64,000 nucleotides of DNA, taken from Candidatus Latescibacterota bacterium. GTDB lineage: Bacteria; Latescibacterota; UBA2968. This document shows, in pieces, positions 20,143 through 43,835 of the stretch. The stretch's first letter is position 1. Each line of letters starts with the position of its first letter. A program made the translations under genes and the position numbers. A model generated the notes under the pieces. The model was not told the DNA's origin. It searched no databases and saw only the letters and a list, made by a program, of their open reading frames with translations. Location: NCBI GenBank assembly GCA_965207885.1, contig OZ242311.1:5728001-5792000 (forward strand), in the 5' to 3' direction.

Positions 20143-20345
20143 TGAGAACAGGAATATCGAACTGAGGATAGCGACTGATGTACTCCACATATTGCAAAAT
20201 TTTAAACCCCTGGAGAGATACACTCTTCAGGGGTAATTTCGATAGATTTGAATTACAAGCAATGTTACAAACATTCATAGATTGAAACTTTAGAGGTACT
20301 GGTTATACTACAAAAGTCAATGCAATGTCTCAAAAGGATAATGAT

Positions 20346-22031: not shown

Positions 22032-22049
22032 GTATCACGGGTAAAAGGC

Positions 22050-22152
22050 GAGCAAAATTGCACATCGCGTGCAATTCTACACACTGGCCCGACATGCTGG
22101 TATGGTAGTGGTTTTCTCGTTTTTTATTTACCAAACGTGTGTATATTTGCAC
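22050..22152 (+). promoter_or_regulatory. three candidate enhancer (UAS) sites, GTGCA-N4-TGCAC-like, upstream of cas6
   Basis: GAGCAAAATTGCAC 22050-22063, GTGCAATTCTACAC 22069-22082, GTGTATATTTGCAC 22139-22152; the same motif occurs at 45361-45394. Confidence 0.65.
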
Positions 22153-22251
22153 GATTGAACATATCGTTGTCCATTTCCTGTTTGAAAAAAATATCACACA
22201 ACCTGTTGTTTTTTTTGATCTCTGAGGAAATTCGGAGATTTTTTTTGTGTT

Positions 22252-22267
22252 TGGCACGCGATTTGCA
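22252..22267 (+). promoter_or_regulatory. sigma54 -24/-12 promoter of the cas6-interference operon
   Basis: TGGCACGCGATTTGCA matches TGGCACG-N4-TTGCW exactly, about 50 bp upstream of cas6. Confidence 0.85.
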
Positions 22268-22314
22268 GATACAATGAGAGCTATCGCAAAATTCCAGATA
22301 CAAAGGAGATACTG

Positions 22315-23286
22315 ATGTTTACACTCGAATTCGCGTATATGCGCCTGCATTTCAAGGCGCGAGAGCATTTGCGCCTGCCACCCTATAAAGGCTCCACATT
22401 TCGCGGGGCTTTTGGCGTGGCATTTAAGCGTGCGGTTTGTATTGTGCAACACGGCGAGTGCGAACGGTGCCTGGTTCGGACCCAGTGCGTGTATCCATAC
22501 ATATTTGACACACCTGTAGATAATGCACAGGGCATCTTCCGCGGGTATAGCGAGGCACCCCATCCCTATCTGATCGAACCCCCACTGGAGACCAAAACCG
22601 ATTACACACCGGGCGACGACTTTGCCATTGGTCTGACCCTGATAGGCCGGGTACTGAATTACATGCCCTATTTCATCTATACATTCCAGCGAATGGGAGA
22701 CACAGGTATTGGACGAGGACGCGGCAAATGCGATCTCATTTCAGGCGAAGCACTGCACGCGGATGGAACCTGGCAGGCGGTGTACGACGGAGCGAGCGAA
22801 GTGTTGCAACAAGATGTACCCCATCTGACCGCGCAAGATCTGATACACAACGAAATAGGATCTCGGATTCGCCTCTCATTTGTAACGCCCACACAACTCA
22901 AAGCAGACCGGATATTGCAGCGCGGATTGGATTTTTCCGTGCTCATACGCGGGCTATTGCGGCGGTATTCGGCATTGGCCGCATTTCACGCAGACGGACC
23001 GCCAGATATAAATTATGCCGACTACATCGCGGCGGCAGAGAATATTCAAACCACATCCCACAACTTGACCTGGCGCACATGGCAACGGTATTCAAACCGC
23101 CAGAACCGACGCATGAGCGTGAGTGGTTTTACGGGAGATGTGGTCTTTGAAGGCGACATGACACAATTCCACCCCCTGCTGGCTCTGGGTGTGCCGATGC
23201 ACGTTGGCAAATGGACCAGCTTTGGGATGGGACAATACAAGTTTTATCAATCCACAATCAACCGAATGGATGAACAACATGGGTAA
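22315..23286 (+). CDS. cas6: CRISPR pre-crRNA endoribonuclease Cas6
   Basis: GSTFRGAFG, CxxC region, C-terminal G-loop HVGKWTSFGMG. Confidence 0.9.
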   Translation: MFTLEFAYMRLHFKAREHLRLPPYKGSTFRGAFGVAFKRAVCIVQHGECERCLVRTQCVYPYIFDTPVDNAQGIFRGYSEAPHPYLIEPPLETKTDYTPGDDFAIGLTLIGRVLNYMPYFIYTFQRMGDTGIGRGRGKCDLISGEALHADGTWQAVYDGASEVLQQDVPHLTAQDLIHNEIGSRIRLSFVTPTQLKADRILQRGLDFSVLIRGLLRRYSALAAFHADGPPDINYADYIAAAENIQTTSHNLTWRTWQRYSNRQNRRMSVSGFTGDVVFEGDMTQFHPLLALGVPMHVGKWTSFGMGQYKFYQSTINRMDEQHG

Positions 23287-23629
23287 TCAAGCCAATCAAG
23301 GGTACGATAAATATTATTCTGAAGACAGCTTCTGGAAGAAGTTGCTCAACTTTGCACGCACCGCGGGCCGGGAAGTCGTCGAGAATGCTCTGTCGCTCTA
23401 CTACACTGCCCAGGCACCTGACACACCAACCTGGGCCAAAACGGTCATCACCGGGGCACTGGGGTACTTTATTCTTCCGGCCGATGCAATTCCCGACCTG
23501 ATTCCTGCTGTCGGTTACGGCGATGATCTGGGTGCGCTGGTCGCGGCACTTGCAGCCGTGGCGGCTCATGTGACACCTGAGATCAAAGCCCGCGCAAAAG
23601 AAAAAGCAGCCGAGTGGTTTGGTGAATAA
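23279..23629 (+). CDS. YkvA/DUF1232 family membrane protein
   Basis: ALGYFILPADAIPDLIPAVGYGDD signature. Confidence 0.85.
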   Translation: MGNQANQGYDKYYSEDSFWKKLLNFARTAGREVVENALSLYYTAQAPDTPTWAKTVITGALGYFILPADAIPDLIPAVGYGDDLGALVAALAAVAAHVTPEIKARAKEKAAEWFGE

Positions 23630-23648
23630 ATGGTATAGGAGATGTATC

Positions 23649-24788
23649 ATGCGCTTTGTTCTATCAACCATTGGTACAAGCATCTTGACAAATTTCATCG
23701 ATAAAACAAATTTTGGTGAAGCTAAATGGCAGGGTATGCTACGGGATTCGGCGAATCTCAAACCAGATGAATTATCGCATGAAACTACAGAAGTGATTGA
23801 AACACTCGTTGACCGGGCATTGACGCAACTCCTAAGAGATGATGTAGCTACCAATCGCCGGATTAGTGCCGAATTGAACGGTATCTATGGTATTTATGAA
23901 GGTCAATTGCCTCATAACAGTCGAGACCAGCACTATCTCATCTGCACTGACACTGCCCAGGGACAGAAGACGGGCAAACTGATTCAGGATTTTCTTGAAA
24001 ATAAAGGGTTTGTCGCAGGTATTGTTACGCCTGATAGACTTTCAACACAAGGCCCGGAATCTTTCACCACAGGTACAAAAGACCTTATCCGCTGGCTGGA
24101 GGAAAACGTGCCGTGGCGACGCGATGTGGGCTATCGCGTAATCTTCAATCTCGTTGGTGGCTTCAAAAGCCTACAAGGTTATATGAATACTTTCGGTGCT
24201 TTTTACGCCGATGAGGTCATTTATATATTTGAGGCACCAACTGCTGACTTAATCAAAATTCCGCGTCTGCCAATTCAGATTGATACAACCGTGATTCAAA
24301 ACCATCGGGTGCAATTTGCGATGATGGATGCTGAAAAACTGTATCCTGTTGAGGAACTCGAGGGGATTCCAGAAACACTGCTTGAATTTATAGAAGAGAA
24401 AGGCCAGACTTATGCGGGATTATCGGCGTGGGGCCAGTTGATCTGGAACCTCACGAAATCGGATTTATTGACAAAAAAACTATTGCATTTTCCACGATTG
24501 GGATATGGAAAAACTTTCAGGGATGACTTCGACAATCAGAATGATTCCAGGAAACGTCTTAAACTGCAAGAAACCCTGGCAAGGGTCTCATATCTACTTG
24601 AACAGAACAATGGCAACCGGGCACTGCTTATGCGAGATGGTGGACTGCAATTTGAAAAATTTACCAATAGAGAGAGTATTTACAAATTCCGCATTGATCG
24701 CACTATCCGCGTCAGTTGCTCGGTTTCTGAAGGTGGATTGATCCTTCGGCACTATGGACATAAAAATGTCGTGTACGAAAATCCATAA
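23649..24788 (+). CDS. CARF (APE2256-like) + RelE-like effector, Cami1-like mRNA interferase
   Basis: STIGTS, SAELNG, TDT..G and NLVGGFKS CARF motifs; C-terminal YKFRIDRTIRV...RHYGH resembles RelE. Confidence 0.7.
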   Translation: MRFVLSTIGTSILTNFIDKTNFGEAKWQGMLRDSANLKPDELSHETTEVIETLVDRALTQLLRDDVATNRRISAELNGIYGIYEGQLPHNSRDQHYLICTDTAQGQKTGKLIQDFLENKGFVAGIVTPDRLSTQGPESFTTGTKDLIRWLEENVPWRRDVGYRVIFNLVGGFKSLQGYMNTFGAFYADEVIYIFEAPTADLIKIPRLPIQIDTTVIQNHRVQFAMMDAEKLYPVEELEGIPETLLEFIEEKGQTYAGLSAWGQLIWNLTKSDLLTKKLLHFPRLGYGKTFRDDFDNQNDSRKRLKLQETLARVSYLLEQNNGNRALLMRDGGLQFEKFTNRESIYKFRIDRTIRVSCSVSEGGLILRHYGHKNVVYENP

Positions 24789-24863
24789 AAAGGATAGAAA
24801 GACAATGGATTACCTACACATTATCATATTCTTATCGCTATATACAAAGGAGGTCTTCGCATC

Positions 24864-26483
24864 ATGGCCTGCGAATCGTTTGTCATCGTAATTGATACCC
24901 CTTCTATCAAGAGGTATGTATTTGGAACCGACCCCTTAAATGAGATACGAGGTGCGAGCGCACGTTTAGATTGGCTAAATCGAATCAAAATGGAAGAACT
25001 TTTGTGTGAACACCTCAGTAAGGCAGATGTAAAATCGATTTACGCCAATGGTGGTTCGGCACAGTTTTTAGTTCATGAGAGTGACAACCTCACTGTGAAT
25101 ATGGCCTGTACAAATATGGTTCGGTATATCCGCAATCAAACGGGTGGCGAAGTCCGGGCAGTTTATGGTATCGCACCGCTCAAAGACGAAGCTTCCTATC
25201 AAGAGGCGGTGCATAGGGCACATTTTCAGTTGCGCTGTCAACGCGAATTTGGGACCAGCTACCGCAGTGCGTCTTTAATACCGACCATGATGGAATGTCA
25301 ATCAGCCTCGCATCTGCCCGCGGCTCATATTGTGAATCGAGGCGCAGATGGTATAGGCATGTTATCTAAGGCGAGTTACCAAAAGGAACTGCGGGGGCAT
25401 GAAGCCCGCCGTCATGGACTCTGGGACGGATGGATGGATCACTTGAAAACCACGGGACCGTGGCCAGGAGAGGAGCAGTGGAATAAACTGCGGTGTAAGA
25501 GCATGACAGATATAGGTGACCACTCGTCATGGCGCAACTACATTGGCGTGGTTTATGCCGATGGAAATGCCATGGGACAAATTGTCCAAGCACTCAATCA
25601 TCCAGAGACATTCCGCCAATTTAGCGAAATTGTTGATAATAGCATTCGACAATCATGTTTCACCGCACTCAGCCAAATTTTCCAGACTGAAATCGAAAAC
25701 ATTCGGGAGGCTTTTGAACAAAACCGCCGCTTTGAACACCTTGCCGCCGATATTCTGCTCTTGGGAGGAGATGATTTGCTGGTGGCCGTACCAGCTAACT
25801 CTGCACTCGATTTCGCCTTGAAGGTCACAGAAGAATTTGAACGCTTGACACAAGAGAAAATTGCTGCCCTGAAAGACGCAGAATCTCGGCAGTTCTTCCG
25901 CGACCGACTTGGGGATCGGGGTTTCACAATTTCTTGCGGTGTTGCCATAGCAAAAAGCAACTATCCCTTTTACCTGTCATTGGATCTGGCCGAGCAATTG
26001 TTGAAAAATGCCAAACGGAAAGACAGCTATGGGGCACAACTCGAAACACCCGGTGAAGCTCGCATTGACTTTCATGTTGTGACTGGTGCGAATAGCCATG
26101 CCCTCAAAGAGGTTCGTGAAGAAACCTATCAGATAGCAAGCAATGCACGCCGCACGCTCAGACCCTTGTCTTGCCCCCAGTTGGAATTACTGCACAACAG
26201 TGTACAGAAACTACGCAACGTGAAATTTCCACATAGCAAATTGCACGAACTTCGAGAAGCAGCACTGGCAAAAACGGAGAATCAAGCCGACTGGCGCATT
26301 CGCGACATTTTCGTCCGGTGTCGGCATGATCGAAATAGCTCTGAACGTCGTGCATTGTGGCAAGCGGTGCATAACCTGTGCCCCCAGGGATATACGTTTG
26401 ATTTTCCCTGGTTCATAAAAAATGGCCAACGCCTTCTGTGTGTAGCGGACATAGTGGATATTTACAACTTATTCCGAAAATAG
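24864..26483 (+). CDS. cas10: Cas10, short HD-less form with intact cyclase motif
   Basis: IDTPSIKRYVF...IRGAS, YADGNAMG, LGGDDL, AEQLLKNAK. Confidence 0.9.
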   Translation: MACESFVIVIDTPSIKRYVFGTDPLNEIRGASARLDWLNRIKMEELLCEHLSKADVKSIYANGGSAQFLVHESDNLTVNMACTNMVRYIRNQTGGEVRAVYGIAPLKDEASYQEAVHRAHFQLRCQREFGTSYRSASLIPTMMECQSASHLPAAHIVNRGADGIGMLSKASYQKELRGHEARRHGLWDGWMDHLKTTGPWPGEEQWNKLRCKSMTDIGDHSSWRNYIGVVYADGNAMGQIVQALNHPETFRQFSEIVDNSIRQSCFTALSQIFQTEIENIREAFEQNRRFEHLAADILLLGGDDLLVAVPANSALDFALKVTEEFERLTQEKIAALKDAESRQFFRDRLGDRGFTISCGVAIAKSNYPFYLSLDLAEQLLKNAKRKDSYGAQLETPGEARIDFHVVTGANSHALKEVREETYQIASNARRTLRPLSCPQLELLHNSVQKLRNVKFPHSKLHELREAALAKTENQADWRIRDIFVRCRHDRNSSERRALWQAVHNLCPQGYTFDFPWFIKNGQRLLCVADIVDIYNLFRK

Positions 26484-26497
26484 AGAGGAGTTTACCC

Positions 26498-27235
26498 ATG
26501 AAATCCCAACGCCTAAATTTGTGCTACCACATTATTTGGCAAGGACGCTGGCATGTTGGCAGCGGCTATCAGTCGGCAGTGGCGGACCGCTTGTTGCGAC
26601 GACTACCCAATAATGCACCATTTGTTCCTGGCTCTCAGATCAAAGGTGTTCTGCGCCATCAATGCGAGCGGTTGGCACTGGCCCTTGATCTCAAAGTGAT
26701 CAATCCCCATGCTGGCATTGAAGAAGACGAACAAAATCTGATCAAGCATTTTACGCCGTTAAAAAAATCGGACCTGATGGTCGATAGGTTATTTGGCAGT
26801 CGCTATCAGGGAGAGTGCCTATTTGTGACGAATGCGGTGCCGATGTCGTCTGCAGAGAAAAGTATGACTTCCGTACAGGCACGCACAGCCATTGATCGCG
26901 TCACGGGGACTGTGATGGAACAACACTTGTTTACAACTGAATTGACAGAGGGTGATGTCAACTTGCGAGGAAAAATACGCGCACGGCATCCTGCTGGTGT
27001 TCTGACACAAGATGAAGATGGCTTTCCTTGGGAGTATGCCCTTTTGATAGCAACCCTGCTGTCGCTGGATGCTCTCGGCGGCGATAAGAGTCTTGGCCTC
27101 GGGCGGTGTGAGGTCCAAATCGAACCAGAGTCGTTGTATTGGAACGACCAACGCATTTCGTTAGATGAAGCTCTTCAAAGTTTTCAAGAGGAAGACTGGG
27201 GCGAGTGGGTAGATATTTTGCGTGAGGAGTCATGA
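26498..27235 (+). CDS. Cas7-group RAMP (Csm3-like)
   Basis: WHVGSG, PGSQIKGVLR, TAIDR, GGDKSLGLG. Confidence 0.88.
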   Translation: MKSQRLNLCYHIIWQGRWHVGSGYQSAVADRLLRRLPNNAPFVPGSQIKGVLRHQCERLALALDLKVINPHAGIEEDEQNLIKHFTPLKKSDLMVDRLFGSRYQGECLFVTNAVPMSSAEKSMTSVQARTAIDRVTGTVMEQHLFTTELTEGDVNLRGKIRARHPAGVLTQDEDGFPWEYALLIATLLSLDALGGDKSLGLGRCEVQIEPESLYWNDQRISLDEALQSFQEEDWGEWVDILREES

Positions 27236-28482
27236 TGAGAAAAAAAATACCTTTGACAGCACAATTACTTGCGCCAGTAGCTATCAAACGCGATCGACAA
27301 TCCGAACGTTCTGGAGGCGTGCATTCTATGGCTGGTACGATGGTTCGCGGTGCCCTAGCTGCTCTCTATTTACAGCATCATGGAGAAGTAGATGATACCT
27401 TCAATCATTTGTTCTTAGATGAGAATTCATGTCGATTTGGACCATTGGACCCCGGTCCGCGCTGCTTCCCATTAACTACCGCGGAGTGCAAACGGGAAGG
27501 AATAAAACATGCCCTCGTGGACCAACTGTGGTTTCGGATCGCCCAACACTACCTGACTGGCAGTGTGCCAGATAATGCCGAAACGCCCTGGCGTCAATGT
27601 GACATATGTAAAGCCGACTTGAAGAACCTGAACGGCTTTTGGGAAAAAGAAAACGGTCGTCTGCAGGAAAAAAGTAATGAGCGGCAACAGGTCGCCGCCC
27701 ATGTTGGCATTGACCGTCACACCACCACCGCGGCGGAATCAATATTGTACACCCTTGAAGCCTTACAGCCTTCCGGTCAAGAGGAAGACCTGTACGGCTG
27801 GCTCATGGCTGACGACGATGCGCTTACTGCCTTGAAACAACTCTTGCAGAATGAAGATTACCGCATCTCGGTGGGCCACCATCGCACGCGCGGTTACGGA
27901 GATCTGCGCTTACAGTTGGGCAATCCTGTGGAGAAGAATGATTCACAGCCGCGCATAGAAGATTGGGAACAATGGAGCCGCGATCTGATTGCGTTTCTGA
28001 GTTCACCGCCGCTTTCCATTCCCGATCTCGATCCAGATGATTTTTACTTTAGTTTGTCGTTTCCCACTGGCGCAGTGTTTGTGGACCGCTTTCTGTGTTA
28101 TACTCTCGATCCAGCAGACCTGATTTCATGGTTGTCGCCTATGCCTTCTGCAGATGCCGCGTTTCCAATTCAGAATCGTCCGACCCGACAACTCGCATCA
28201 GGGGGCACAATGTGCTGGATCGCTGCCGTAACCCGACATGAGCGTTTGCGCGGCTGGAATGCAGCTCACGGCTTGCCGCGTCAGGATGAATGGGCCGTAG
28301 TACGAGGGTCAGTCTATGTTTACCGCTTTACAGGCACGGCCACAGAACGCGAGACACTCATTGAACAACTTGCAACCTTGTCCGAAGAAGGCGTCGGTCT
28401 GCGGCGCAATGAAGGCTTTGGCATGGTGATCGTGTCCGATGATTTCCATCGCCAATTTTGCAAACAGGAGGTGCAATCGTGA
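27232..28482 (+). CDS. Cas5-group RAMP (Csx10-like)
   Basis: GTMVRGALA, VGIDR, HRTRGYG, GLRRNEGFG. Confidence 0.8.
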   Translation: MMRKKIPLTAQLLAPVAIKRDRQSERSGGVHSMAGTMVRGALAALYLQHHGEVDDTFNHLFLDENSCRFGPLDPGPRCFPLTTAECKREGIKHALVDQLWFRIAQHYLTGSVPDNAETPWRQCDICKADLKNLNGFWEKENGRLQEKSNERQQVAAHVGIDRHTTTAAESILYTLEALQPSGQEEDLYGWLMADDDALTALKQLLQNEDYRISVGHHRTRGYGDLRLQLGNPVEKNDSQPRIEDWEQWSRDLIAFLSSPPLSIPDLDPDDFYFSLSFPTGAVFVDRFLCYTLDPADLISWLSPMPSADAAFPIQNRPTRQLASGGTMCWIAAVTRHERLRGWNAAHGLPRQDEWAVVRGSVYVYRFTGTATERETLIEQLATLSEEGVGLRRNEGFGMVIVSDDFHRQFCKQEVQS

Positions 28483-28904
28483 TCGTCTTGAACACCGGTT
28501 TGATCCAAAAAGTTGATCTCTACATTGACGAGAACCATAAAACATTTTCAGAACTGGGAGATCGTTTCTTTGACGTATTTAGCTATGACAAACGGAATGA
28601 TCGCATTAATACGCAAATCCGGAATCTGCAACAAATTACCTGCTCCGCTACGCGCTTTGCGGATATCGAAGATTTTGTAAAAAACCAAATGGGAAAAGAA
28701 GAAACTAAAGACCCCAAATGGAAGAAAGTGGGAGACAGCACCTTAAAAAAATTAAAGGAGTTGCGCGACAAAAGCCAGGAATTTGATTCCGATCCCGCTA
28801 ACCAGATGGCACTGCGTCTCCGTCTCGCTCGTGGTTGGGTGCGTGCCGTAGTCAGTCAGTATCTCTATCGCGTTGCATGCGATCAAATGGGAGAGAGGCC
28901 ATGA
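28479..28904 (+). CDS. small helical subunit (Cas11/Csm2-like)
   Basis: Size, position, TQIRNL...FVKNQMGK pattern. Confidence 0.55.
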   Translation: MIVLNTGLIQKVDLYIDENHKTFSELGDRFFDVFSYDKRNDRINTQIRNLQQITCSATRFADIEDFVKNQMGKEETKDPKWKKVGDSTLKKLKELRDKSQEFDSDPANQMALRLRLARGWVRAVVSQYLYRVACDQMGERP

Positions 28905-29422
28905 CATGCGTTGATTTACTATCTGATACCACCTACTGTGAACAGGCTGTTCAACAACTGGATCGACTATTGGGTGACATGAATCAATTCCCCGTAAAGC
29001 GCACGCAGATCTACGGCCTGCGACAAATCGCCCAGCAACAGCCCAGAGAAATTCAAGGATTTGCCAATCATCAGCGCGAGCGTGCCCAGCGCAAGCAGGA
29101 AAACGCCTCCGAAAACACCAAACCGAGATACCAGCCTGAAATCGATTTCTGGGCTCTGGTGGCCGATTTGTGCAGCAATTCGAGTTCTAATTGGTCTGTG
29201 GAAGAGGAAGGACACACCCATCTTCCTGAAGAACTACAAAATATTCCGGCAAGGCGGAAAGGCATGTCACATGAGGAACAACGGTATTTAAACGAACTCA
29301 AGAGGCATCGAAGGGAATTACTCGAACAATGGACAAACGAGCATATTCCAGCGTTTTTTGAACGGTTTTGTACACACGCTTTATACCGCTTGGGAAAGCA
29401 AAAAAACTCGAAAAAGGAGTAA
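28901..29422 (+). CDS. second small helical protein (Cas11-like or ancillary)
   Basis: Overlapping stop/start within the operon; RTQIYGL...FANHQRER pattern. Confidence 0.5.
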   Translation: MTCVDLLSDTTYCEQAVQQLDRLLGDMNQFPVKRTQIYGLRQIAQQQPREIQGFANHQRERAQRKQENASENTKPRYQPEIDFWALVADLCSNSSSNWSVEEEGHTHLPEELQNIPARRKGMSHEEQRYLNELKRHRRELLEQWTNEHIPAFFERFCTHALYRLGKQKNSKKE

Positions 29423-29425
29423 AAC

Positions 29426-30277
29426 ATGACGAATGACGATGCATTGGCTGCCAGTTTTGGATTGAGACAAAAGATCCGACTTACTGCATCTCTTGTGTTT
29501 GATACTGCATGGCGCATTGGATCTGGTAAAGAGGGCGAAACCATGAGTGATTTGGGTGTGGTGCTTGATCCTATAGGTCAACCGGTGCTTCCAGGTTCCT
29601 CTCTCAAGGGAAAATTGCGAAGCACCTGTGAAACTCTGTCACATGCGCTTGGGTTGAGAGCCTGCATGTTGAATCACAACGCAAGCGGTGTCAAATGCAC
29701 AAGTGATGTGAACTATTATCGCACTGTTCGTGAAACATATCAGGAAGCATTGCAAAAGGGGTTACAGGATCGCCTGCAATGGATTGAAGAGAACACCTGC
29801 GACGTGTGTAAATTATTCGGATCACCAATGCAGGCAAGCCGGCTTTGTATAAGCGATGGCCTGCTTAAAGAATGGGCCTCTATTGTGCAAGTACGCGATG
29901 GCGTCGTGATTGACCGCGATAGCCAGACAGCTGTCAATGGTCTTAAATACGACTATGAAGTTGTTCCGCCCGGTAGCCGATTTAAAATTTGTATTGATCT
30001 CGAAAACCCAACTGACCAGGATGTGGCCTTACTCGGTGCCGCTTTATTTGAATGGCACTCTGGTAGCAGTATTGGAGGTTTTACAAGCCGTGGACTTGGA
30101 CGCTTTCATCTGGAGGATATTCAGCTTGTCGGTGTTGACATGGCCGACAGTGAGCAACGCATGAAGTTCCTGACCGGGAAAAAGGCTAAAGATCGTCTTT
30201 CTGATTGGGACAGTTGGGATATCTACTTCACCAGGTACATCAAACAGCAATTAGAACCTGATACTCAGGAGGATTAA
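29426..30277 (+). CDS. Cas7-group RAMP (Csx7-like)
   Basis: RIGSG, PGSSLKGKLRS, CDVCKLFGS, RDGVVIDR, GGFTSRGLG. Confidence 0.88.
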   Translation: MTNDDALAASFGLRQKIRLTASLVFDTAWRIGSGKEGETMSDLGVVLDPIGQPVLPGSSLKGKLRSTCETLSHALGLRACMLNHNASGVKCTSDVNYYRTVRETYQEALQKGLQDRLQWIEENTCDVCKLFGSPMQASRLCISDGLLKEWASIVQVRDGVVIDRDSQTAVNGLKYDYEVVPPGSRFKICIDLENPTDQDVALLGAALFEWHSGSSIGGFTSRGLGRFHLEDIQLVGVDMADSEQRMKFLTGKKAKDRLSDWDSWDIYFTRYIKQQLEPDTQED

Positions 30278-30279
30278 CC

Positions 30280-31236
30280 ATGTTGCGGAAATGGCTTTGT
30301 CAAGCCGATGTAAAAATTGCCATCGAACCGGTTGATCCGGTGTTGATTAAGAGCGGCTATGCTACCAGAGATGGTGCAGATATGGTGCCAGTATCAACAT
30401 TTAGAAATGAGGAGAGAATCTATTACTTTCCAGGAACATCTCTCAAAGGCGTGTTGCGTAGCCATTTGGAGCGAATTGCCCGTACCTTGCAGCAAGGTAG
30501 TGTGTGTATTCCCTACTATCGAAATAACAGCACCCCAATACCTGTTGCAGCGGAACAGCACGCCCATGGCTGCGGATTTCGTTCACGAGGTGGAAGGAAT
30601 GGAGAGGCTACATCGGCCAGGTACGCGGATTCGTGCGCCATATGTCGGTTGTTTGGCTCACTGAAATTTGGCGGACGTTTTAGCGTTGGAGATGCCTACC
30701 CCTTGCCGGACCATAAACCCACTTTAGAATCGCGCAACGGAGTGGGTATTGACCGTTTTACAGGTGGATCGGTATCAGGTGCTTTGTTTGACCTGCAAGT
30801 TCTGGTCGGCGGTAAATTTGAAGCAAATCTACGGTTGACAAATTTTGAACTCTGGCAATTGACCGCTCTCAATCTATTGCTTGCCGATCTACAAGATGAG
30901 ATGATTACCATAGGTTCGGGACGAAGTAGAGGTCTCGGGCGCGTGCGCGGCACTGTCACTTCGTATTCTTTAACCTATGTACAGGAGGAAAGTCATCTCG
31001 AAGGTTTATATCAACTCGCAACCTCGGAGGAGCAGCAAGCCTACCGGTTGCACGACTGGAAGCCCGATAGTCCGATTGAGCTATCAACGCCTGAGTCGCA
31101 TGGTTTGCGGCAGGAATACGATCTGAGTTCCGATTGGCTCCAGCATTTGCAACCGCTCGTTCCAGCCTTTGAGGCATTTTTGCGGTGGCACGGCGGACCT
31201 CAAGGGCAGATATCCCAACAAGGGGATAGGTCATGA
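30280..31236 (+). CDS. Cas7-group RAMP
   Basis: PGTSLKGVLRS, CAICRLFGS, RNGVGIDRFTG, GSGRSRGLG. Confidence 0.88.
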   Translation: MLRKWLCQADVKIAIEPVDPVLIKSGYATRDGADMVPVSTFRNEERIYYFPGTSLKGVLRSHLERIARTLQQGSVCIPYYRNNSTPIPVAAEQHAHGCGFRSRGGRNGEATSARYADSCAICRLFGSLKFGGRFSVGDAYPLPDHKPTLESRNGVGIDRFTGGSVSGALFDLQVLVGGKFEANLRLTNFELWQLTALNLLLADLQDEMITIGSGRSRGLGRVRGTVTSYSLTYVQEESHLEGLYQLATSEEQQAYRLHDWKPDSPIELSTPESHGLRQEYDLSSDWLQHLQPLVPAFEAFLRWHGGPQGQISQQGDRS

Positions 31237-31826
31237 CTACCTTCTTAAAAACGGCGGATTTGACACCAGATCAGTTTCTCGATCTGATTACCAATCTCGA
31301 CCACGATGACACACCCCAGCAACGGATCTGGCTGGAAACACCTGATGGTTGGGCCTTCAATTGGTGGTGCGGCCTGGCTGGCGACCTCTCTTGGTGTGGT
31401 GCAGGCCGCGAGCCGGTTGAAAAATCTGCCCGTGATTGTCTGACCCGATCTACCTCCGGGCGATTGTTTGCGCCTGACGGTGAACTGCGCTGGCGCGTTA
31501 TTCCCTCTCTGGGGGAATCGTGCTGGCGTACCGTTTTCCTCGGTAACGCCGATTGGGTGGGTACTGCATTAAACGACTACTCAGATAAACTACATGATCT
31601 GCATCCACATCAGGACAGCTTTTTTTTGTGGGGCCAGCAAACCGATGAGACACCGAATGAGTGGATTGAACTACGTATTCCACATCGCTTCAATTATCCG
31701 ATTAGCGATAACCCTCGCAGCGTGAGCGTTGTTGTTGAGCAGTGGAGCGACGATGCCGGTGAGCCTCACTTTGTCCGATTGTGTGATCTCAAACCCTATC
31801 AGGAGAACAGTGATGCCGCAAGGTGA
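31233..31826 (+). CDS. Csx19-like type III-D subunit
   Basis: GRLFAPDGELRWR, LWG, ELRIP, C-terminal VRL; typical position before the last Cas7. Confidence 0.65.
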   Translation: MTTFLKTADLTPDQFLDLITNLDHDDTPQQRIWLETPDGWAFNWWCGLAGDLSWCGAGREPVEKSARDCLTRSTSGRLFAPDGELRWRVIPSLGESCWRTVFLGNADWVGTALNDYSDKLHDLHPHQDSFFLWGQQTDETPNEWIELRIPHRFNYPISDNPRSVSVVVEQWSDDAGEPHFVRLCDLKPYQENSDAAR

Positions 31827-32916
31827 AAATTTCTGGAATCCTTATCGCTGGGTTACCATCAGCGATCAACCCGTCGAATACGACGACCTACCTTATCAAC
31901 ATGTAGTGAACGACCTTTCCGGCCGTATCTGGTGCGAACTTGAAGCCCTGACGCCATTCATCGTCGGTGACGGACATGGAATGTTTGTCAAGCATTCCCA
32001 TACTTTCAGTCCATATATTCCGGCCACTTCGCTTAAGGGTGCAATACGTTCTCTCGCAGAAATCGTCGGAAATGCGGCTGTGCCGTTTCCAAATGTTTCG
32101 GTTGATAGCCAACACGCATTGACACGAGCACGCACCAACAAGGGAGGGCGCTCGCAGGTTGACACTGTAGCCAGAACATTTGGCTATTTGCACGGTGGTA
32201 ATGTCTTCGCTGGCTTGATACGCTTTAGTGACGCAGAAATCACTAAAGAACCGCTACCGCCAAACCAATGGCCACAGTACGATGTCGCTGTTGGTCAGCC
32301 CAAGCAGAGCCATACTGCGTTTTATCCTGGAAATAATCAACGCAAATTCTATCACCACCGCCCCGGTGCCACACAGCTTACCGCACCACACGCTGGCATT
32401 ACACAAACGAGTAGCGTACAACCTGCACCTCCCGGCACACGCTTTAACTTTACGGTGAACTTTGCAAATCTACGTAGCTCTGAACTCAACTTGCTACTCT
32501 ACTGTCTGATGCTCGAAGAACAGGTCACTGTCACGCTAAGTCCAGCGGCACTTGGTCGTGATGAAGCGCAAGGACCTGTCATATTAGAGGGACCCATGCG
32601 CCACAAAATGGGAGGTGCCAAACCTCATGGTGCTGGTTCGGTTCACATTCGTATCACCAGGATGGAGTTGCGTACAGATGCGATGGCACGCTACCGGGGT
32701 AACGATTCTATTGAAACCTATAAAGCAGAAGATCTTACAAATGAATTCGAAAATCGTACCGCATCATTTCGGAATCGCACCGATCAAACGATGCAAGAAT
32801 TACGCGCCATGTTGATCTATTCTCTCGAGGATCCCAGACAGCCGATACATTATCCGACCTATGGATGGTTTCGAAATGGGAACAATGCAGGCACGCAGTT
32901 AAAGCCTACAATATAG
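31813..32916 (+). CDS. Cas7-group RAMP of the type III-D terminal (NPY-start) class
   Basis: FWNPY, IPATSLKGAIRS, RKFY, NL...EL..LL, KMGGAKPHGAGSV. Confidence 0.82.
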   Translation: MPQGENFWNPYRWVTISDQPVEYDDLPYQHVVNDLSGRIWCELEALTPFIVGDGHGMFVKHSHTFSPYIPATSLKGAIRSLAEIVGNAAVPFPNVSVDSQHALTRARTNKGGRSQVDTVARTFGYLHGGNVFAGLIRFSDAEITKEPLPPNQWPQYDVAVGQPKQSHTAFYPGNNQRKFYHHRPGATQLTAPHAGITQTSSVQPAPPGTRFNFTVNFANLRSSELNLLLYCLMLEEQVTVTLSPAALGRDEAQGPVILEGPMRHKMGGAKPHGAGSVHIRITRMELRTDAMARYRGNDSIETYKAEDLTNEFENRTASFRNRTDQTMQELRAMLIYSLEDPRQPIHYPTYGWFRNGNNAGTQLKPTI

Positions 32917-33015
32917 CGGCAGGAATTACTCTTGAAAACAGCCCCAAACCAGTAGGGTGACCCGTGTCATCCCTTGATGATAGACGGCGGAATTGGTTTA
33001 TAGAAAGGTAAGCAT

Positions 33016-34287
33016 ATGAAACTGGCGATGTTAGTGACTGTAGGCGTAGGCAGTACTGTTTCAGATGGGATCGTATTCGCTATTCGGCACAGGCGGCCAG
33101 ATTTTGTGATGTTTCTGACTACGTTGCAAAGTGAAGAACTCACCATTCCCAATCTTCTTGAAACACTCAAGTTAGATCCCGAAGCATATCAATGTCGCCG
33201 TGTAGATGACGAAAATGACGTTGAAAAATGTACGTTGGATTTCATCTCGGTGATCCAAAATCTGAAAAACCGGGGATTTGATTCGGAAGACATTGTAGCG
33301 GATTACACATCGGGTACAAAGGCAATGTCGGCAGGACTTGTGGCCGCTGGTCTTGAGGCCGCCCTTGGAGAACTATCTTATATTGCTGGAGAACGCGATG
33401 AGGGCCGTGTTGTCTCGGGAACGGAACGCGCTATATCGCTTGCACCAAACCGATTGAGAGTACGCCGCATTGTAGAACAGGCCATAACGGAGTTCAACTC
33501 CGTTCGGTTTGATACCTGTCTGGACATGCTGAACCAGATCAAAGAATTGATTCGCCTGCAGAGTGTCAGGCAAGCTGTTAATACATTGCAGGCTCTTGCA
33601 TTGGGATACCGCGCCTGGGATCAATTCGATTACACATTGGCCATGTCCGAACTGGATGGACTGACAGGCAATGCACATCTATCCGAATGGGGATTAAAAA
33701 GAAGGCTGGAACGGCACAAAGGTTTTTTATACCGCGTCAAAAATTTCGATTATGGCGTAGAGCGTGCTACAGACTTGTGGAATAGCGCAGAAAGACGCAA
33801 AGCGGAAGGACGTTTTGATGATGCCGTAGCCCGGCTCTATCGGCTAATTGAATATATCGCACAGGTGCGGCTGTTCCGCAATCACAATGGACTAAAAACA
33901 AGTGATCTGGATATAAGCTTGTTGCCCGAATCCCTGCGTGCTTCGTACAAAGAAAAAGCTGGACGATCTGGAAAAATTGAACTCGGGTTATATGAGAGCT
34001 ATGCGTTGTTAAAAGCTCTCGACAATGATCTGGGCCAGTTCTTCATAGCCAAGTATGATGAAACAGAAGAATTAAAAAAAGTATTAGGGCTGCGAAATCA
34101 GTCGATTCTTGCACACGTATTTGGACCTCTATCTCAAAATGGATGTAAAACGGCCCAGTCTTCTGTACGGTCATTGATGGATCAGGCATTCCGGAACTGG
34201 GAAGACACTGCTCGTGAATCTGCTTTTCCAAAACTGAACACATCTCAAGTGATCCCAAGTCTGAATTTATCAAATGGGTTCGGATAA
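33016..34287 (+). CDS. TIGR02710-like CARF + HEPN-like effector
   Basis: VTVG, DYTSGTKAMSAGL, AVARLYRLIE, RNQSILAH. Confidence 0.8.
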   Translation: MKLAMLVTVGVGSTVSDGIVFAIRHRRPDFVMFLTTLQSEELTIPNLLETLKLDPEAYQCRRVDDENDVEKCTLDFISVIQNLKNRGFDSEDIVADYTSGTKAMSAGLVAAGLEAALGELSYIAGERDEGRVVSGTERAISLAPNRLRVRRIVEQAITEFNSVRFDTCLDMLNQIKELIRLQSVRQAVNTLQALALGYRAWDQFDYTLAMSELDGLTGNAHLSEWGLKRRLERHKGFLYRVKNFDYGVERATDLWNSAERRKAEGRFDDAVARLYRLIEYIAQVRLFRNHNGLKTSDLDISLLPESLRASYKEKAGRSGKIELGLYESYALLKALDNDLGQFFIAKYDETEELKKVLGLRNQSILAHVFGPLSQNGCKTAQSSVRSLMDQAFRNWEDTARESAFPKLNTSQVIPSLNLSNGFG

Positions 34288-34301
34288 TTTGTAAAAAGAT
34301 G

Positions 34302-34339: not shown

Positions 34340-36501
34340 GACTGGATAGAGGGAGGTTAAAAGAGACTTCATAGTTTAATTCAAGCCAGTGGATGCGACC
34401 CAGAGACGTTTATCAATGTCATGCTGGCAGTTTGAGCGTGTAGCGAACAACGTGCGTGAGGATTACAGGCATTTCCTCATGTGCTGGTGGGTCGCAAATT
34501 TCTAACCTTTTGCAGGAGTGTGTATTATGAACAGAGCCGTGAATGCAATTTTTCATTTTTGGGAGGATTTTGTATGTCAAAATGGCCTGAGTCGCAAACC
34601 GCCTTGTAATTGCTTGCGAGACAGGAAATAACGCAGACGGTATCAGGAAGAATTACCCGCTTATTGGGGTATTGAAACTTTGGCACTTCGCCAGCACATC
34701 GCTACCATTGCGTTGGGATCAGGAAGAATTACCCGCTTATTGGGGTATTGAAACAAAAAGAGTGGACGGTATTTTGGAACGAATCGGTGCCAGTCAATCA
34801 GGAAGAATTACCCGCTTATTGGGGTATTGAAACTCTGCTATAGCGGTGAAATGAGGGGACGGCAGGGAGGGATATCAGGAAGAATTACCCGCTTATTGGG
34901 GTATTGAAACCGCGTCCAATCAAAAGATCGGACGCCGCAAAATATAGTTAATCAGGAAGAATTACCCGCTTATTGGGGTATTGAAACCTGAGCAGATCGA
35001 TACCAACATACGCGAACTTGAAGGCGCATCAGGAAGAATTACCCGCTTATTGGGGTATTGAAACTTGGACGAGCCTGTTTTGGCTCCAAATGTTACCACC
35101 ATCAGGAAGAATTACCCGCTTATTGGGGTATTGAAACCGGTTGATCTCGTAGATGAGGTTGGTAAGTTCTACCCAATCAGGAAGAATTACCCGCTTATTG
35201 GGGTATTGAAACGTGAAAATTAACTGCCGTTTCTGCTTTCGCTTTTTCAAGACAATCAGGAAGAATTACCCGCTTATTGGGGTATTGAAACCTGGGTATG
35301 CACATCCGACCAGATGATCGGCACTGGGCCTGATCAGGAAGAATTACCCGCTTATTGGGGTATTGAAACTTGCCGCTGCCGTCGGGGTCAATCGCGTTCA
35401 GGGCGATCAGGAAGAATTACCCGCTTATTGGGGTATTGAAACGGTTGCTGCCTGTCCCAGAATCGCCTGGATTGCCGTGCGAATCAGGAAGAATTACCCG
35501 CTTATTGGGGTATTGAAACCAGGTACATGCGCCCGCGCTAAACAAGTTTTCAGCAGATCAGGAAGAATTACCCGCTTATTGGGGTATTGAAACCTGCCTC
35601 GAACTCTGCCATTTTTTCTTCTGAGATTTTTATATCAGGAAGAATTACCCGCTTATTGGGGTATTGAAACTCCTCGTCATCATCCCCAATCCCTGGGGAT
35701 ATTGATGCTATCAGGAAGAATTACCCGCTTATTGGGGTATTGAAACTTTCTCCATCGCCCTGCCACGTAAAATTCGTGTGTTCAAAAATCAGGAAGAATT
35801 ACCCGCTTATTGGGGTATTGAAACTTTTACAGTTTTTGCTACAGCCTGAAATTCTGCCATTATCAGGAAGAATTACCCGCTTATTGGGGTATTGAAACCA
35901 GTCGATGATGGCATAGCGATCCAACGTCGCGGCGTATCAGGAAGAATTACCCGCTTATTGGGGTATTGAAACCTCAATATGATAAATTATGTTGGCCGCA
36001 TCCCAGTATCAGGAAGAATTACCCGCTTATTGGGGTATTGAAACTTGCATAATTGTCCGATCGGGATTTATATTTTTGGATATATCAGGAAGAATTACCC
36101 GCTTATTGGGGTATTGAAACGGTTATCTTTGTGTCTGGTTGATTTTGGCAAATGCTAATCAGGAAGAATTACCCGCTTATTGGGGTATTGAAACTTTTTT
36201 GAGGGCGGGACTTGCTCCGACCGCACAAAGAAATCAGGAAGAATTACCCGCTTATTGGGGTATTGAAACTATCGAAGGATTTGCGCTTAAACATTTCCTT
36301 TCGGGCTTATCAGGAAGAATTACCCGCTTATTGGGGTATTGAAACCGGGGTTGTCTGATTTATGAGGACTGAATTTGTTGTTATCAGGAAGAATTACCCG
36401 CTTATTGGGGTATTGAAACAGATTCTGCTTCTGGGTCATCTTCGAGGTGTTTTTGGGCAATCAGGAAGAATTACCCGCTTATTGGGGTATTGAAACGAGA
36501 A

Positions 36502-38898
36502 GTAGGGTAGGCTGCTGGCGAGTTACCCAAAGGCACTTTTCCATCAGCCCCCCTCCGAACCGGACGTGATAGTTTCCCATCATCCGGCTCTCCAGTAACT
36601 TTCACCGTTTTGAGGTCGGCCCGCCTCGATGGATGTTGATATGACAGCTTTTACAGACGACAAGTGTTTTTCTGCGTCTTGCTGCCATTTTATGTTTCCA
36701 TCTTGGCTTTTTCTTCCTTCCCGGCTTGTCCACATCCGTTAGTTTGCGTATGTGGTGAACTTCTACTTCTTGCCGAGAACCACATAATTCACATTCTGAT
36801 GCCGTTAAGCGTTGTATTAGCTCGCTACGACTCCAGTATGGTTTTATGTCTTTCAGGCCGTCCTTGATTACCGCGTTCTCTGTGTTGCGTATTAAGGGAA
36901 CCCCTCCAAAGTATGCGATTAGGGGCTTTTTACCTTCTCTTTCTACGGTTACTTGTATGCATTTTCGTGGGCCTCTTGGGGTAATTACTTTACCCTTATA
37001 TTTCCTTGCCGTTTTTCTCACTTGCGATTTGTGTTTATTCGCAAGTGTCTTTAGCAGGGACGTTTGTATGACCCATTCCAATTTGCTCAGTCTCCGTATG
37101 TTGTTTGCGAGTTGGTAGTATTGCACAAAGCCTCTATATTCCCTTTGATAGCGGGATATGATGTCAAAGTCGCTGTCCTGTAACAATTGTGGTCGCGCCT
37201 CTGGCTTCCCGTTTCTCATATAGGTATTGCATCTCGCATCACTTACATCTTTGGGGATGTATAAGCCGAGTCTTCCATTAATGGCCCTTTTCTTAATGTA
37301 GCTGTCCATTTGTGTGTTACTGAAATATCCCTTGATTTCGTATCCTAAAAATCTGGCTCTTTCGGTGGTTACGTGGGTTATTAGGGTCTTTTCTTCTGAA
37401 AGTTCGAGCTTCATATCTTGCAGGAATTTCTTTAGAATTGACTTAATTCCCCTTGCTTCCATTTTGGAGCCTACTAATCCTATTAGGAAGTCGTCAGCGT
37501 ATCTTATGTAGTATATTCTTTTGAAATCGGGGTCGTCTTGGAGTGAGCAGGGTATTTTCTGCATCTTCTGTCTATACTCCTTTGCTTCTTCAAATCGACC
37601 TTTCTTTTTCAGGTGATATACTTTGTTAATCAGATACCTGTATTCAGGGTTTTTCTTTCGGCTTTTTCCTTTTGTGAATAGAGATTTGAGGGTGTTTTCA
37701 ACAAATTTATCCAGTCTATCGAGGTAGATATTTGAGAGTATCGGGCTTACGATTCCCCCTTGTGGCGTTCCGCTCAAGGTGGGTGTGTAATTCCAATTCT
37801 CCATATATCCTGCTTTGAGTAGATTGGATATTAACCGCAGAAATCGGTTGTCTCGGATTTTCTCTCGGAGTATTGATAGTAAGATTTGGTGGTCTATATT
37901 ATCGAAGCACCCCTTAATATCTCCTTCGACAAACCATTTCGTTCCGTTCCACTTTTTGACTGCTTGTAATGCCGTGTGACAGCCTTTATTTGGTCGGAAC
38001 CCGTGAGACAAGCTGCTAAATTGCGGTTCATAATACGCTTCTAATATGGAGCGTATTACTTCCTGCACAAGTTTGTCTGTCCACGTAGGAATGCCTAACG
38101 GTCGCATTTTACCGTTTTTCTTTGGTATATGTGTCCGTCTCACTGGAGTCCATCTGAAGCGTTCATAGCGTATTTGTTCTATGATTGCTTTAATTTTCTT
38201 CAGTGACATTCCATCAACGGTTTCTTCCGTTATACCTTTGGTCATTGCGCCTTTGTTGCGTTGAATGCGACTGTAGGCCCGCAGGTATAGATCGGGGTTG
38301 AACATTTGTCGATAAACGTCTTCAATGGGTAATCCTCTTAAACCTCGATTTCGGATGATACCTAATACTGTTTCGGCGTCTCGCATCTCGCGTGCCTCCT
38401 GTATTATTGTATCCAGTTACCTGTTTTCCTTCGCCTTGTGGACGGCTTTCCCGTCCTCTGACTACTATGAAAACTCCGTTACCATAGGACTCGCGTCCCG
38501 TAGGCAATCCCGTGTTTTTCTGTTGTGGTCTGTATTAGTGTGGGTTAGGTAGTCCACTCATTCCTTAAATGAGCTACATTGCTCATCGTTGGCAGTTCCA
38601 AAGGTTATGGGAAAGCATTGGTTAATTTCCCATAAAACTGATACCGGTATCGGACGACTTTCCGGTAGGGCGAAGCGACCGTCCTTCTGGAATTGGACTT
38701 CGGGCAGTTTAGCTCTTACCATACCACACAGGTCTTGCGGAGCAAATGTTTTTGTCGCCTTCTCTACATTCTCCGCTTTACGAATATGCTATTTTCCCTT
38801 TCGCCTTTCGGTTCCGGTTGATTCGTTGACCTATGGACGTTCCTTTGAGTCCATCCTGATTTAGTCAGGAATACCACATCAGACGCTACACGGCGCAC
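36502..38898 (-). mobile_element. group II intron (IIA, Ll.LtrB-like), apparently complete, 2397 bp
   Basis: 5' GTGCG at 38898; domain V GAGCCGGATGATGGGAAACTATCACGTCCGGTTC; domain VI ending CCTACCCTAC at 36502; EBS1 loop at 38616-38621. Confidence 0.93.
36602..38386 (-). CDS. intron-encoded reverse transcriptase/maturase with HNH endonuclease (LtrA-like)
   Basis: RPLGIP, HGFRP, GDIKGCFDNI, GTPQGG, RYADD, FLG; C-terminal CELC...HH...CKSCH. Confidence 0.95.
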   Translation of the reverse strand: MRDAETVLGIIRNRGLRGLPIEDVYRQMFNPDLYLRAYSRIQRNKGAMTKGITEETVDGMSLKKIKAIIEQIRYERFRWTPVRRTHIPKKNGKMRPLGIPTWTDKLVQEVIRSILEAYYEPQFSSLSHGFRPNKGCHTALQAVKKWNGTKWFVEGDIKGCFDNIDHQILLSILREKIRDNRFLRLISNLLKAGYMENWNYTPTLSGTPQGGIVSPILSNIYLDRLDKFVENTLKSLFTKGKSRKKNPEYRYLINKVYHLKKKGRFEEAKEYRQKMQKIPCSLQDDPDFKRIYYIRYADDFLIGLVGSKMEARGIKSILKKFLQDMKLELSEEKTLITHVTTERARFLGYEIKGYFSNTQMDSYIKKRAINGRLGLYIPKDVSDARCNTYMRNGKPEARPQLLQDSDFDIISRYQREYRGFVQYYQLANNIRRLSKLEWVIQTSLLKTLANKHKSQVRKTARKYKGKVITPRGPRKCIQVTVEREGKKPLIAYFGGVPLIRNTENAVIKDGLKDIKPYWSRSELIQRLTASECELCGSRQEVEVHHIRKLTDVDKPGRKKKPRWKHKMAARRRKTLVVCKSCHINIHRGGPTSKR

Positions 38899-39588
38899 CT
38901 AATGAGGCTTTGGGTAGATCGTTCACACCCAATCAGGAAGAATTACCCGCTTATTGGGGTATTGAAACTTCGATGCGGGAGCGACCAGCGGCTTGAATCT
39001 TAACAACTGATCAGGAAGAATTACCCGCTTATTGGGGTATTGAAACTATTGCGAGAGAAGATGTTCGCAGATCGAAAGATCCATCAGGAAGAATTACCCG
39101 CTTATTGGGGTATTGAAACTCGAGCTTGACGATGCGCTCTTCGTGGTTGGCGAGACGATCAGGAAGAATTACCCGCTTATTGGGGTATTGAAACGCGTCA
39201 AGGTCTCTGCGTATCTGGTCGAAATTGTCCTCGGATCAGGAAGAATTACCCGCTTATTGGGGTATTGAAACAAATATACTGCACACCACAAGCAGAGCAT
39301 CTCAAAAGTGCATCAGGAAGAATTACCCGCTTATTGGGGTATTGAAACCCGCGGACAGCGAGCGCAAAATCGTCGCAGTCGCTTCTGATCAGGAAGGATT
39401 ACCCGCTTACTGGGGTATTGAAACAATAGCTTGCGGATACACACAGCAAACTCGTTGTAATCATCAGGAAGGATTACCCGCTTACTGGGGTATTGAAACG
39501 AAACTGTCTTACTTTTTTACTTCGGGAATGATTTTGGGATCAGGAAAGATTACCTGTTTACAAAAAGAAAAAGGAGAGGAAACAAGTG

Positions 39589-42062: not shown

Positions 42063-42081
42063 CTCAGAAAGGAATCATTTA

Positions 42082-43818: not shown

Positions 43819-43835
43819 CTTGAGATTGTCTTAAG

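Follow-up and report, generated by a model that had tools for sequence, protein, structure and literature searches.

A mobile group II intron, very probably retrohomed into a spacer that copies its homing site, lies apparently antisense within a likely type III-D CRISPR array of a Latescibacterota bacterium

We analysed a stretch of 64,000 nucleotides (nt) from the genome of a Candidatus Latescibacterota bacterium (contig OZ242311.1, positions 5,728,001 to 5,792,000; hereafter the window), in which a CRISPR array follows a cas operon that is likely of subtype III-D. A mismatch scan with the 37-nt repeat located 33 repeats, 31 of which are identical, the remaining two (repeats 32 and 33) carrying two changes each. 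The 31 ordinary spacers measure 35-42 nt (median 39), and one unit, number 25, is 2,435 nt long and contains a group II intron. The parts of the array and of its insertion are, in window coordinates:

34288-34641: leader side of the array
34642..39499, + strand: CRISPR array of 33 repeats of 37 nt
36460..36496, + strand: repeat 25, intact, with 0 mismatches
36497..36501, + strand: first 5 nt of spacer 25, GAGAA, which on the - strand form positions +1 to +5 of the 3' exon of the intron
36502..38898, - strand: group II intron of 2,397 nt, with its 5' end (GUGCG) at 38898 and its 3' end (...CCUAC) at 36502
36502..36592, - strand: intron domains V-VI with a bulged A near the 3' end (RF00029), the target of the guide predicted below
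36602..38386, - strand: intact open reading frame (ORF) for the intron-encoded protein, 594 aa, with reverse transcriptase (RT), maturase and HNH domains
38615..38625, - strand: candidate exon-binding site 1 (EBS1)/delta loop in domain I, 11 nt on an 8-bp stem, UUAACCAAUGC
38899..38931, + strand: the other 33 nt of spacer 25, which on the - strand form positions -33 to -1 of the 5' exon
38932..38968, + strand: repeat 26, intact, with spacers 26-33 beyond the insertion
39539 (start): degenerate 34th repeat

The Rfam model RF00029 matches 36592..36502 on the - strand over its full length (model positions 1-77) with 68.3 bits, the gathering threshold being 40, and an E-value of 2.5e-11. The fold predicted for domains V and VI comprises a 34-nt domain V and a domain VI with a bulge, and at -46 kcal/mol (z -3.62) it was equalled in stability by 0 of 200 shuffled sequences. 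Group II introns begin with GUGYG and end with AY, a consensus that the ends GUGCG and CCUAC fit. The intron-encoded protein matches TIGR04416 (301.3 bits, cutoff 300), RVT_1 (129.5 bits) and Intron_maturas2 (PF01348, 67 bits), and its HNH domain is AI2M-like (PF21368, 49.5 bits); judged by this protein, the intron would belong to the mitochondrial-like/IIA class. At the DNA level 94 plasmid records, including 35 from Lactococcus, are distantly similar to the intron (60-80%). Since the ORF for RT, maturase and HNH is intact, the element starts with GUGCG and an identical second copy exists, the sequence that follows repeat 25 is not there by chance resemblance. The 5 nt and 33 nt that flank the intron add up to 38 nt, within the range of the 31 ordinary spacers, and the intron thus sits in one normal spacer, behind its fifth nucleotide. 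Integration of a 2.4-kb fragment by Cas1-Cas2 was considered and rejected because the flanks total one normal spacer; homologous recombination was rejected because they measure just 33 and 5 nt.

A BLAST search of the bacterium's own genome returned a single further copy, which we call copy B, at C1:3116209-3118605 on the same strand and identical at 2,397 of 2,397 nt. The BLAST block extends 28 nt upstream of GUGCG, and because all six differences are confined to these 28 nt they are exon and not intron. The identity of the two copies argues for recent mobility. Among the 21 genomes of the genus, full-length copies occur in this genome only, and one other genome carries a 743-nt fragment of the intron with 93% identity. 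Copy B, at what we call site B, splits a small gene:

L001 10587-10796, - strand: homing-site gene, with homologues at L002-L053 and L066-L114

Uninterrupted orthologues of this gene encode a protein of 91-95 aa. Of 61 related genomes, 49 have the protein, with a single match in the bacterium's own genome and two to three copies in some of the others, and 34 of 83 alignment columns are invariant across 15 sequences. No intron interrupts the orthologues in the 20 remaining genomes of the genus, whose open frames measure at least 93 aa. Over positions -7 to +3, the candidate EBS1/delta loop can pair with site B at 8 of 10 positions, seven of them contiguous, and with the spacer at 7 of 10. Contigs of three public sequencing runs (X1, X5 and X6) contain the site-B junction, and every 3' flank of the intron in the public-run contigs is site B or some other site. 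We place the transfer in the direction from site B to the array because site B pairs better, its junction recurs in public runs whereas the array junction is in none of the four runs compared, and the orthologues in the genus are uninterrupted. These comparisons indicate that site B is the cognate site and that the array copy is the product of a very recent, near-cognate retrohoming event.

The spacer itself resembles the site that copy B occupies. Aligned in fixed register with the exons of site B, it is identical at 24 of the 33 upstream and 2 of the 5 downstream positions, hence at 26/38 (binomial probability 2.2e-8 at p = 0.25). Read on the - strand, it codes for GVNDLPKASLVL, in frame with the motif [KRNGD]VND[IL]PKA[VI]LVL of the site-B protein. 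The position of this motif is kept in 50 of the 51 homologue loci that were fetched, at a DNA identity to the spacer of 20-28 of 38, and also in metagenome homologues, some of which (L089) contain NDLPKASLVL exactly. Among another 50 loci, taken from metagenome and viral contigs, DNA identity reached at most 29/38, compared with 21-25 for 20 shuffled spacers, and the differences between spacer and homologues lie mostly at third codon positions. The pattern indicates that the 38 nt of spacer 25 come from a diverged homologue of the site-B gene and cover the landing site from -33 to +5.

The protein that this gene encodes matched no Pfam family, no PHROG and no PDB sequence, fell into hypothetical clusters only in the Atlas, and in its 93-aa form gave no tblastn match in phages or plasmids; one viral contig (L065) encodes a relative of 33% identity in which the motif is absent. 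Its AlphaFold model shows four strands and a long helix (predicted local distance difference test score 78.5), for which Foldseek found nothing in the PDB at E <= 0.001, the best match being a small single-stranded DNA-binding protein with E 0.11 and a template modelling score of 0.28. A PC4-like fold was considered and found no support. Spacers 1-24 likewise gave no megablast match to phages.

The array appears to be read on the + strand with its leader at the cas side, an assignment that rests on four features. The cas operon and the unchanged repeats lie at the 34.6-kb side, and the changed and degenerate repeats at the 39.5-kb side. On the + strand the repeat forms a hairpin, TACCC/GGGTA, which stops 7 nt short of the repeat end, and the last 8 nt of repeat 25 (36489-36496) read ATTGAAAC, presumably the usual handle left by Cas6. 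Read on the - strand, all 33 repeats resemble weak terminators, with a hairpin and a T-rich tail. Finally, none of the 11 promoter-like sites found in 34200-39900 is on the - strand.

These observations converge on one origin, and we consider it very probable that the group II intron retrohomed from its cognate site into spacer 25, which mimics its homing site. The spacer would have been acquired from an intron-less homologue of the site-B gene and so would have carried the landing site from -33 to +5, with the sense strand of the gene on the - strand of the array, as an RNA-targeting CRISPR RNA (crRNA) needs. The intron from copy B would then have homed to the site in the spacer and entered its sense strand, hence antisense to the array. 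As group II introns go into the sense strand of their targets and the spacer's sense strand lies on the - strand, no other orientation was to be expected, and the antisense placement is no sign of selection; this argument draws on the two observed orientations together with general knowledge of both systems. The insertion destroyed spacer 25, and unit 25 now consists of the handle, 5 nt of the old spacer and the antisense of domain VI and the intron 3' end. In brief, the event would be a homing-site-mimicry accident with a possible Cas1-independent anti-intron guide as its by-product.

The effector complex that such a guide would need is encoded ahead of the array. The operon, annotated by NCBIfam and Pfam profile matches, contains:

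20325..34287, + strand: type III-D cas operon
20325-22031, + strand: CARF-sigma54 activator (TIGR02584, 167.6 bits, above the curated cutoff)
22315-23286, + strand: Cas6 (PF10040, 69.4 bits)
23619-24788, + strand: CARF/ring-nuclease-like protein
24864-26483, + strand: Cas10, 539 aa (palm2 PF22335, 62.9 bits; TIGR02577, 76.1 bits, below the cutoff of 79.4)
26438-27235, + strand: RAMP (repeat-associated mysterious protein) family protein
27232-28482, + strand: Csx10 (E 8.4e-40; 137.2 bits, below the cutoff of 177.3)
29426-30277 and 30280-31236, + strand: Csx7 in two ORFs (132.8 bits, cutoff 108.05)
31233-31826, + strand: Csx19-like protein (E 3.7e-5; 23.5 bits, below the cutoff of 35)
31729-32916, + strand: RAMP protein
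33016-34287, + strand: CARF protein (TIGR02710, 192.4 bits, above the curated cutoff)

The subtype is likely, though not certainly, III-D, since the matches of Csx10, Cas10 and Csx19 are clear by E-value yet score below the curated cutoffs. There are several RAMP subunits of Cas7 type (Csx7 above its cutoff, and three further RAMP ORFs with matches below theirs) and three CARF proteins. Cas10 has the sequence GGDD at residue 301 and no HD domain. By the profile scans the effector operon, Cas6 and the GGDD-bearing Cas10 look intact. In the first gene of the operon (20325-22031) a CARF domain (TIGR02584, residues 12-222) is fused to the AAA+ domain of a sigma-54 activator, and this fusion could link cyclic oligoadenylate (cOA) to transcription.

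An earlier note on this DNA, made from the letters alone, had proposed that the insertion may convert crRNA 25 into a guide against the intron, in the manner of the clusters that give rise to Piwi-interacting RNAs (piRNAs). The premises of that proposal that can be read from the sequence proved correct. A type III locus with its own Cas6 is borne out by the profile matches, and the intron is indeed antisense to the array, in that it lies on the - strand of an array whose direction we infer to be +. The letters that the note gave for the would-be crRNA agree exactly with the + strand from 36489, and the complementarity that it saw to domain VI and the 3' splice region agrees with the Rfam match. 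The guide can be listed as follows:

36489..36541, + strand: predicted chimeric crRNA 25, consisting of the 8-nt handle, 5 nt of spacer and about 40 nt against domain VI and the intron 3' end

The 8-nt 5' handle at 36489-36496 is one that we assume from what is generally known of crRNAs made by Cas6. It is followed by GAGAA (36497-36501) and then by GUAGGGUAGGCUGCUGGCGAGUUACCC, the reverse complement of the intron 3' end, in a molecule predicted from the sequence. In type III effectors the length of the crRNA is set by distance from the 5' handle, and long 3' tails are trimmed away. The insert contains terminator-like sites on the + strand at 36978, 37547 and 38097, and because the first of them lies about 480 nt past repeat 25, a precursor (pre-crRNA) that reaches repeat 25 would also span the guide. 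We see about an even chance that a pre-crRNA enters the insert and that, once Cas6 has cut repeat 25, the effector takes up the handle and shortens the tail to a mature chimeric crRNA. In the intron RNA such a guide would span the branch region, the 3' strand of domain VI and the intron's 3' end. The lariat 3' end and the branch region are required for reverse splicing.

Towards copy B, the guide is complementary at positions 6-45 (40/40) and at only 2 of positions 1-5 (mismatches at 1, 3 and 4), with 2 of 8 positions pairing opposite the handle, which substantiates at the sequence level the earlier note's expectation that other copies would mismatch positions 1-5. In an excised lariat the pairing would stop at guide position 6, with nothing opposite positions 1-5 or the handle. 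The resident copy in the array probably has no sense transcript of its own, since the - strand of the array lacks promoter-like sites and its repeats are terminator-like. According to two studies, in the TtCmr III-B complex mismatches in segment 1 of the guide keep RNA binding and cleavage and lower cOA synthesis, the output depending on the pairing of the first seven nucleotides (PMC8376896), and in the III-A Cas10-Csm complex of S. epidermidis the same region is critical for cOA with binding little affected, the effect of a mismatch hinging on sequence context (PMC9704408). Under the III-A and III-B rules the mismatch pattern of copy B is consistent with cleavage without cOA signalling. We hold it to be rather unlikely, all steps considered, that the chimeric RNA pairs with copy B intron RNA and that the Cas7 subunits cut it while Cas10 stays off, and distinctly improbable that the guide lowers intron mobility or is selected for.

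Several readings of what the insertion does for the cell have to be set against each other. A dead-end accident with negative effects only, to which we give a little less than an even chance, would mean that spacer 25 is lost, that spacers 26-33 are less expressed and that no stable or effective crRNA 25 arises, until a deletion between repeats eventually drops unit 25. The three terminator-like sites in the insert, the distance of 2.4 kb to the next Cas6 site, the stable hairpin of domain VI and the unique and recent nature of the event all point this way; opposed to it, repeat 25 and the first 480 nt or so after it are free of terminator-like sites, and with a 5'-handle ruler and 3' trimming an absent downstream repeat need not stop maturation. 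The trap in the full sense of the earlier note, in which crRNA 25 cuts other copies and lariats and curbs the intron, and in which such capture is recurrent, selected and independent of Cas1-Cas2, seems to us unlikely. All of its sequence prerequisites are present: the guide spans the lariat end and branch region needed for reverse splicing, the mismatches fit cleavage without cOA, and the genome has just two copies of the intron. The antisense orientation, however, gives no evidence for selection, because it is wholly explained by the orientation of the spacer. The steps at the RNA level and beyond are predictions, the two copies show zero divergence, so that the event is too young for selection to have acted, and the case is single: the antisense array-intron junction occurs in 1 of 168 genomes sampled from the phylum (this one) and the sense form in 0 of 168, with junction patterns that detect only this intron family in this repeat family, and none of the four further loci that have the last 22 nt of the intron lies beside a repeat. 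No precedent for the trap was found in the literature either, and we regard a selected or recurrent trap, taken as a statement in itself, as improbable.

Control without Cas proteins would need a 2.4-kb antisense RNA, read through from the array, that pairs with copy B RNA and leads to degradation of the duplex by double-strand-specific RNases or to a block of splicing or of translation of the intron-encoded protein. The whole intron does lie antisense downstream of a presumably active array promoter, and the complementarity to copy B extends over 2,397/2,397 nt; read-through over 2.4 kb would have to pass the terminator-like sites inside the insert, and this is a quite improbable account. Autoimmunity is less probable still. 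Here the pairing of crRNA 25 with copy B transcripts would be read as non-self, and Cas10, cOA and the CARF proteins would impose a cost or dormancy and make the allele short-lived. The 2/8 pairing opposite the handle, the GGDD of Cas10, the three encoded CARF proteins and the context dependence of segment-1 mismatches in III-A (PMC9704408) would favour it. Three of positions 1-5 are mismatched, however, position 1 included, strongly lowered cOA is described for such mismatches (PMC8376896, PMC9704408), and the complete, single-contig assembly shows the allele as fixed, with the cas genes intact. Finally, were the array read on the - strand, the intron would be in sense and would splice from the pre-crRNA, restoring spacer 25. 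The direction is inferred, and the intron would be spliceable solely in that case, but the location of the cas operon and of the non-degenerate repeats, the + strand hairpin followed by 7 nt with the repeat end ATTGAAAC, the terminator-like behaviour of the repeats on the - strand and the 0/11 promoter-like sites there leave this reading very little probability.

The preferred account, retrohoming into a homing-site-mimicking spacer with an anti-intron guide as a possible by-product, has points of its own to answer. As regards the origin of the spacer, its 33-nt piece has 0 exact matches in viral_contigs and 0 in metagenome_contigs, and within three mismatches it occurs in 1 of the 21 genomes of the genus, namely this one. 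As regards the intron, no Rfam family for domains 1-4 was found at E <= 1 in 36400-39000, and no convincing pairing of EBS2 with intron-binding site 2 (IBS2) was found at the expected place. The array junction comes from this one assembly and is absent from the contigs of runs X1, X5, X6 and X9. Of 22 public runs listed, 20 contain part of the array, the best share of words being 0.18 and none reaching half. The four named runs were placed on 34300-39600, where their contigs fall on the leader, the trailer, a few spacer and repeat pieces and the intron; none spans 36496/36502 or 38898/38932, and 35185-36423 is without cover in all four and so is uninformative. Contigs of this kind cannot reveal RNA ends. 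As regards the guide, the direction of the array is an assignment and its expression is presumed, and the mismatch rules stem from III-A and III-B complexes, none from III-D. Domain VI is a stable helix that in the cell is bound in the intron ribonucleoprotein, which may hide the target, and copy B lies in the genome's sole copy of a conserved gene, such that cutting the unspliced transcript could be costly to the host.

The event resembles the retrohoming and ectopic retrotransposition of Ll.LtrB-like bacterial introns with RT/X/En proteins, with which it shares the ribozyme end, the RT/maturase/HNH protein, sense-strand insertion at a site able to pair with a candidate EBS1/delta loop, two identical copies and a cognate site within a conserved gene motif. 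It differs in that the target is a CRISPR spacer that copies the site, in that repeat 25 provides the 3' exon past +5 and in that the search at the expected place gave no EBS2 pairing. When insertion sequences or other mobile elements are met in CRISPR arrays, they are usually taken as array damage. As in those cases an element splits the array, and blocks of repeats in this locus are also kept apart by a toxin-antitoxin cassette and by two genes for GTPases; what sets this insertion apart is that it was apparently directed by the spacer sequence and that an intact repeat stands upstream of an antisense element in an RNA-targeting system. With animal piRNA clusters it has in common an element lying antisense in a source locus of small RNAs and potential guides that arise without normal acquisition, and it differs from them as one young event, mechanical in its orientation and known from sequence alone. 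[quoted passage not shown] The present intron is still a whole mobile element that sits within the array, with no fusion to cas1, and the adaptation module of this locus is PrimPol-Cas1-Cas2. The mismatch of copy B in positions 1-5 recalls the studies of the Cas10-activating region in TtCmr and Cas10-Csm (PMC8376896, PMC9704408), which used designed mismatches in III-A and III-B, whereas here the predicted guide is a natural chimera in a likely III-D system. Neither an array-borne intron nor a guide arising in this way was found described in the literature searched (including 10.1101/2021.04.16.440249, PMC6452270, PMC8376896, PMC9704408, PMC4143802 and PMC12479173).

The event combines known things, an element in an array and ectopic retrohoming, with a testable twist, and it is a single, very young case. 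It would represent a present-day example of the first step that has been assumed on the way to RT-containing type III adaptation modules. Should the chimeric RNA be made and be active, it would be a natural CRISPR guide born of the mobility of the target element and not of the adaptation machinery, the built-in mismatch would part RNA cutting from the alarm pathway, and two fields that now meet only in the origin of RT-Cas1 would be joined. A more general proposition, that RNA-targeting CRISPR arrays are one-way traps for retrohoming introns, strikes us as improbable in its turn, and its consequences can be stated. Any spacer from an intron-less allele of a homing site would itself be a homing site; because type III spacers are antisense to the gene, every captured intron would be antisense; and capture would at once yield, without Cas1-Cas2, a chimeric crRNA directed at the stretch of intron RNA on which reverse splicing depends. 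The exon remnant at positions 1-5 would mismatch other copies, giving silent cutting with no cOA alarm and no autoimmunity, and the handle would mark the resident copy as self. It is to be predicted that introns retrohomed into spacers always lie antisense where the array is of type III or type VI, that they show no orientation bias in DNA-targeting arrays, and that split spacers should rebuild homing sites. Even without any function of the guide, CRISPR memories of intron-less genes would be landing pads for introns, a cost of immunity memory of which we found no description in the literature searched.

Further observations concern the intron family. In the sponge-associated public runs X5 and X6 there is an ORF-less derivative of this intron family that skips 1,750 nt (36604-38355) and has two other letters at the joint, and sponge-associated runs also show further insertion sites with other 3' exons. 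The last 22 nt of the intron occur exactly in four species genomes (L054-L057), one titled Candidatus Latescibacterota and three Chloroflexota/Anaerolineae, and the 3' exons of these four are all different, which hints at a spread of the family across phyla.

The array and its surroundings have other features. Between 34654 and 39341 the repeats on the - strand form a 5-bp GC-rich hairpin with a T-rich tail (31/34 terminator-like sites, 6.7 expected), and these repeat-borne terminator-like sites may keep the array from being transcribed in antisense. Past the array, in the region 39933-45349, more repeats of the family follow in two blocks, one of four repeats (43836-44098) and one of two (45234-45349). 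Two genes for dynamin-like GTPases (39933-43818) stand between the array and these later blocks, and the blocks are themselves split by a 1,135-nt insert with a 94-aa ORF, a PIN-domain ORF (44546-44950) and an 84-aa ORF, among them a toxin-antitoxin-like pair. An adaptation module at 45663-48932, consisting of TPR-PrimPol (NF040561, 338.6 bits) followed by Cas1 and Cas2, sits downstream of the arrays and not beside the leader of the array with the intron.

Some leader-side spacers are related to the host genome. Spacer 5 (34988-35027) matches host dnaA at 40/40 nt (C1:332556-332595, L060; Bac_DnaA 204 bits) and, as it lies in sense, would give a crRNA unable to pair with the dnaA mRNA. An X1 contig that seemingly joins the chromosome to spacer 4 has a 31-nt stretch in common with C1:5716176, and nothing was drawn from it. 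Spacers 3, 4 and 12 look like chimeras of host sequence: spacer 3 (34834-34873) matches the chromosome over 25/40 nt, spacer 4 (34911-34950) over 31/40 nt, and spacer 12 (35520-35556) combines 20 nt of C1:3927140 with 17 nt from C1:5588051, a site shortly upstream of the 23S rRNA. Such host chimeras would be odd products of normal acquisition and may be linked to the PrimPol-Cas1 module.

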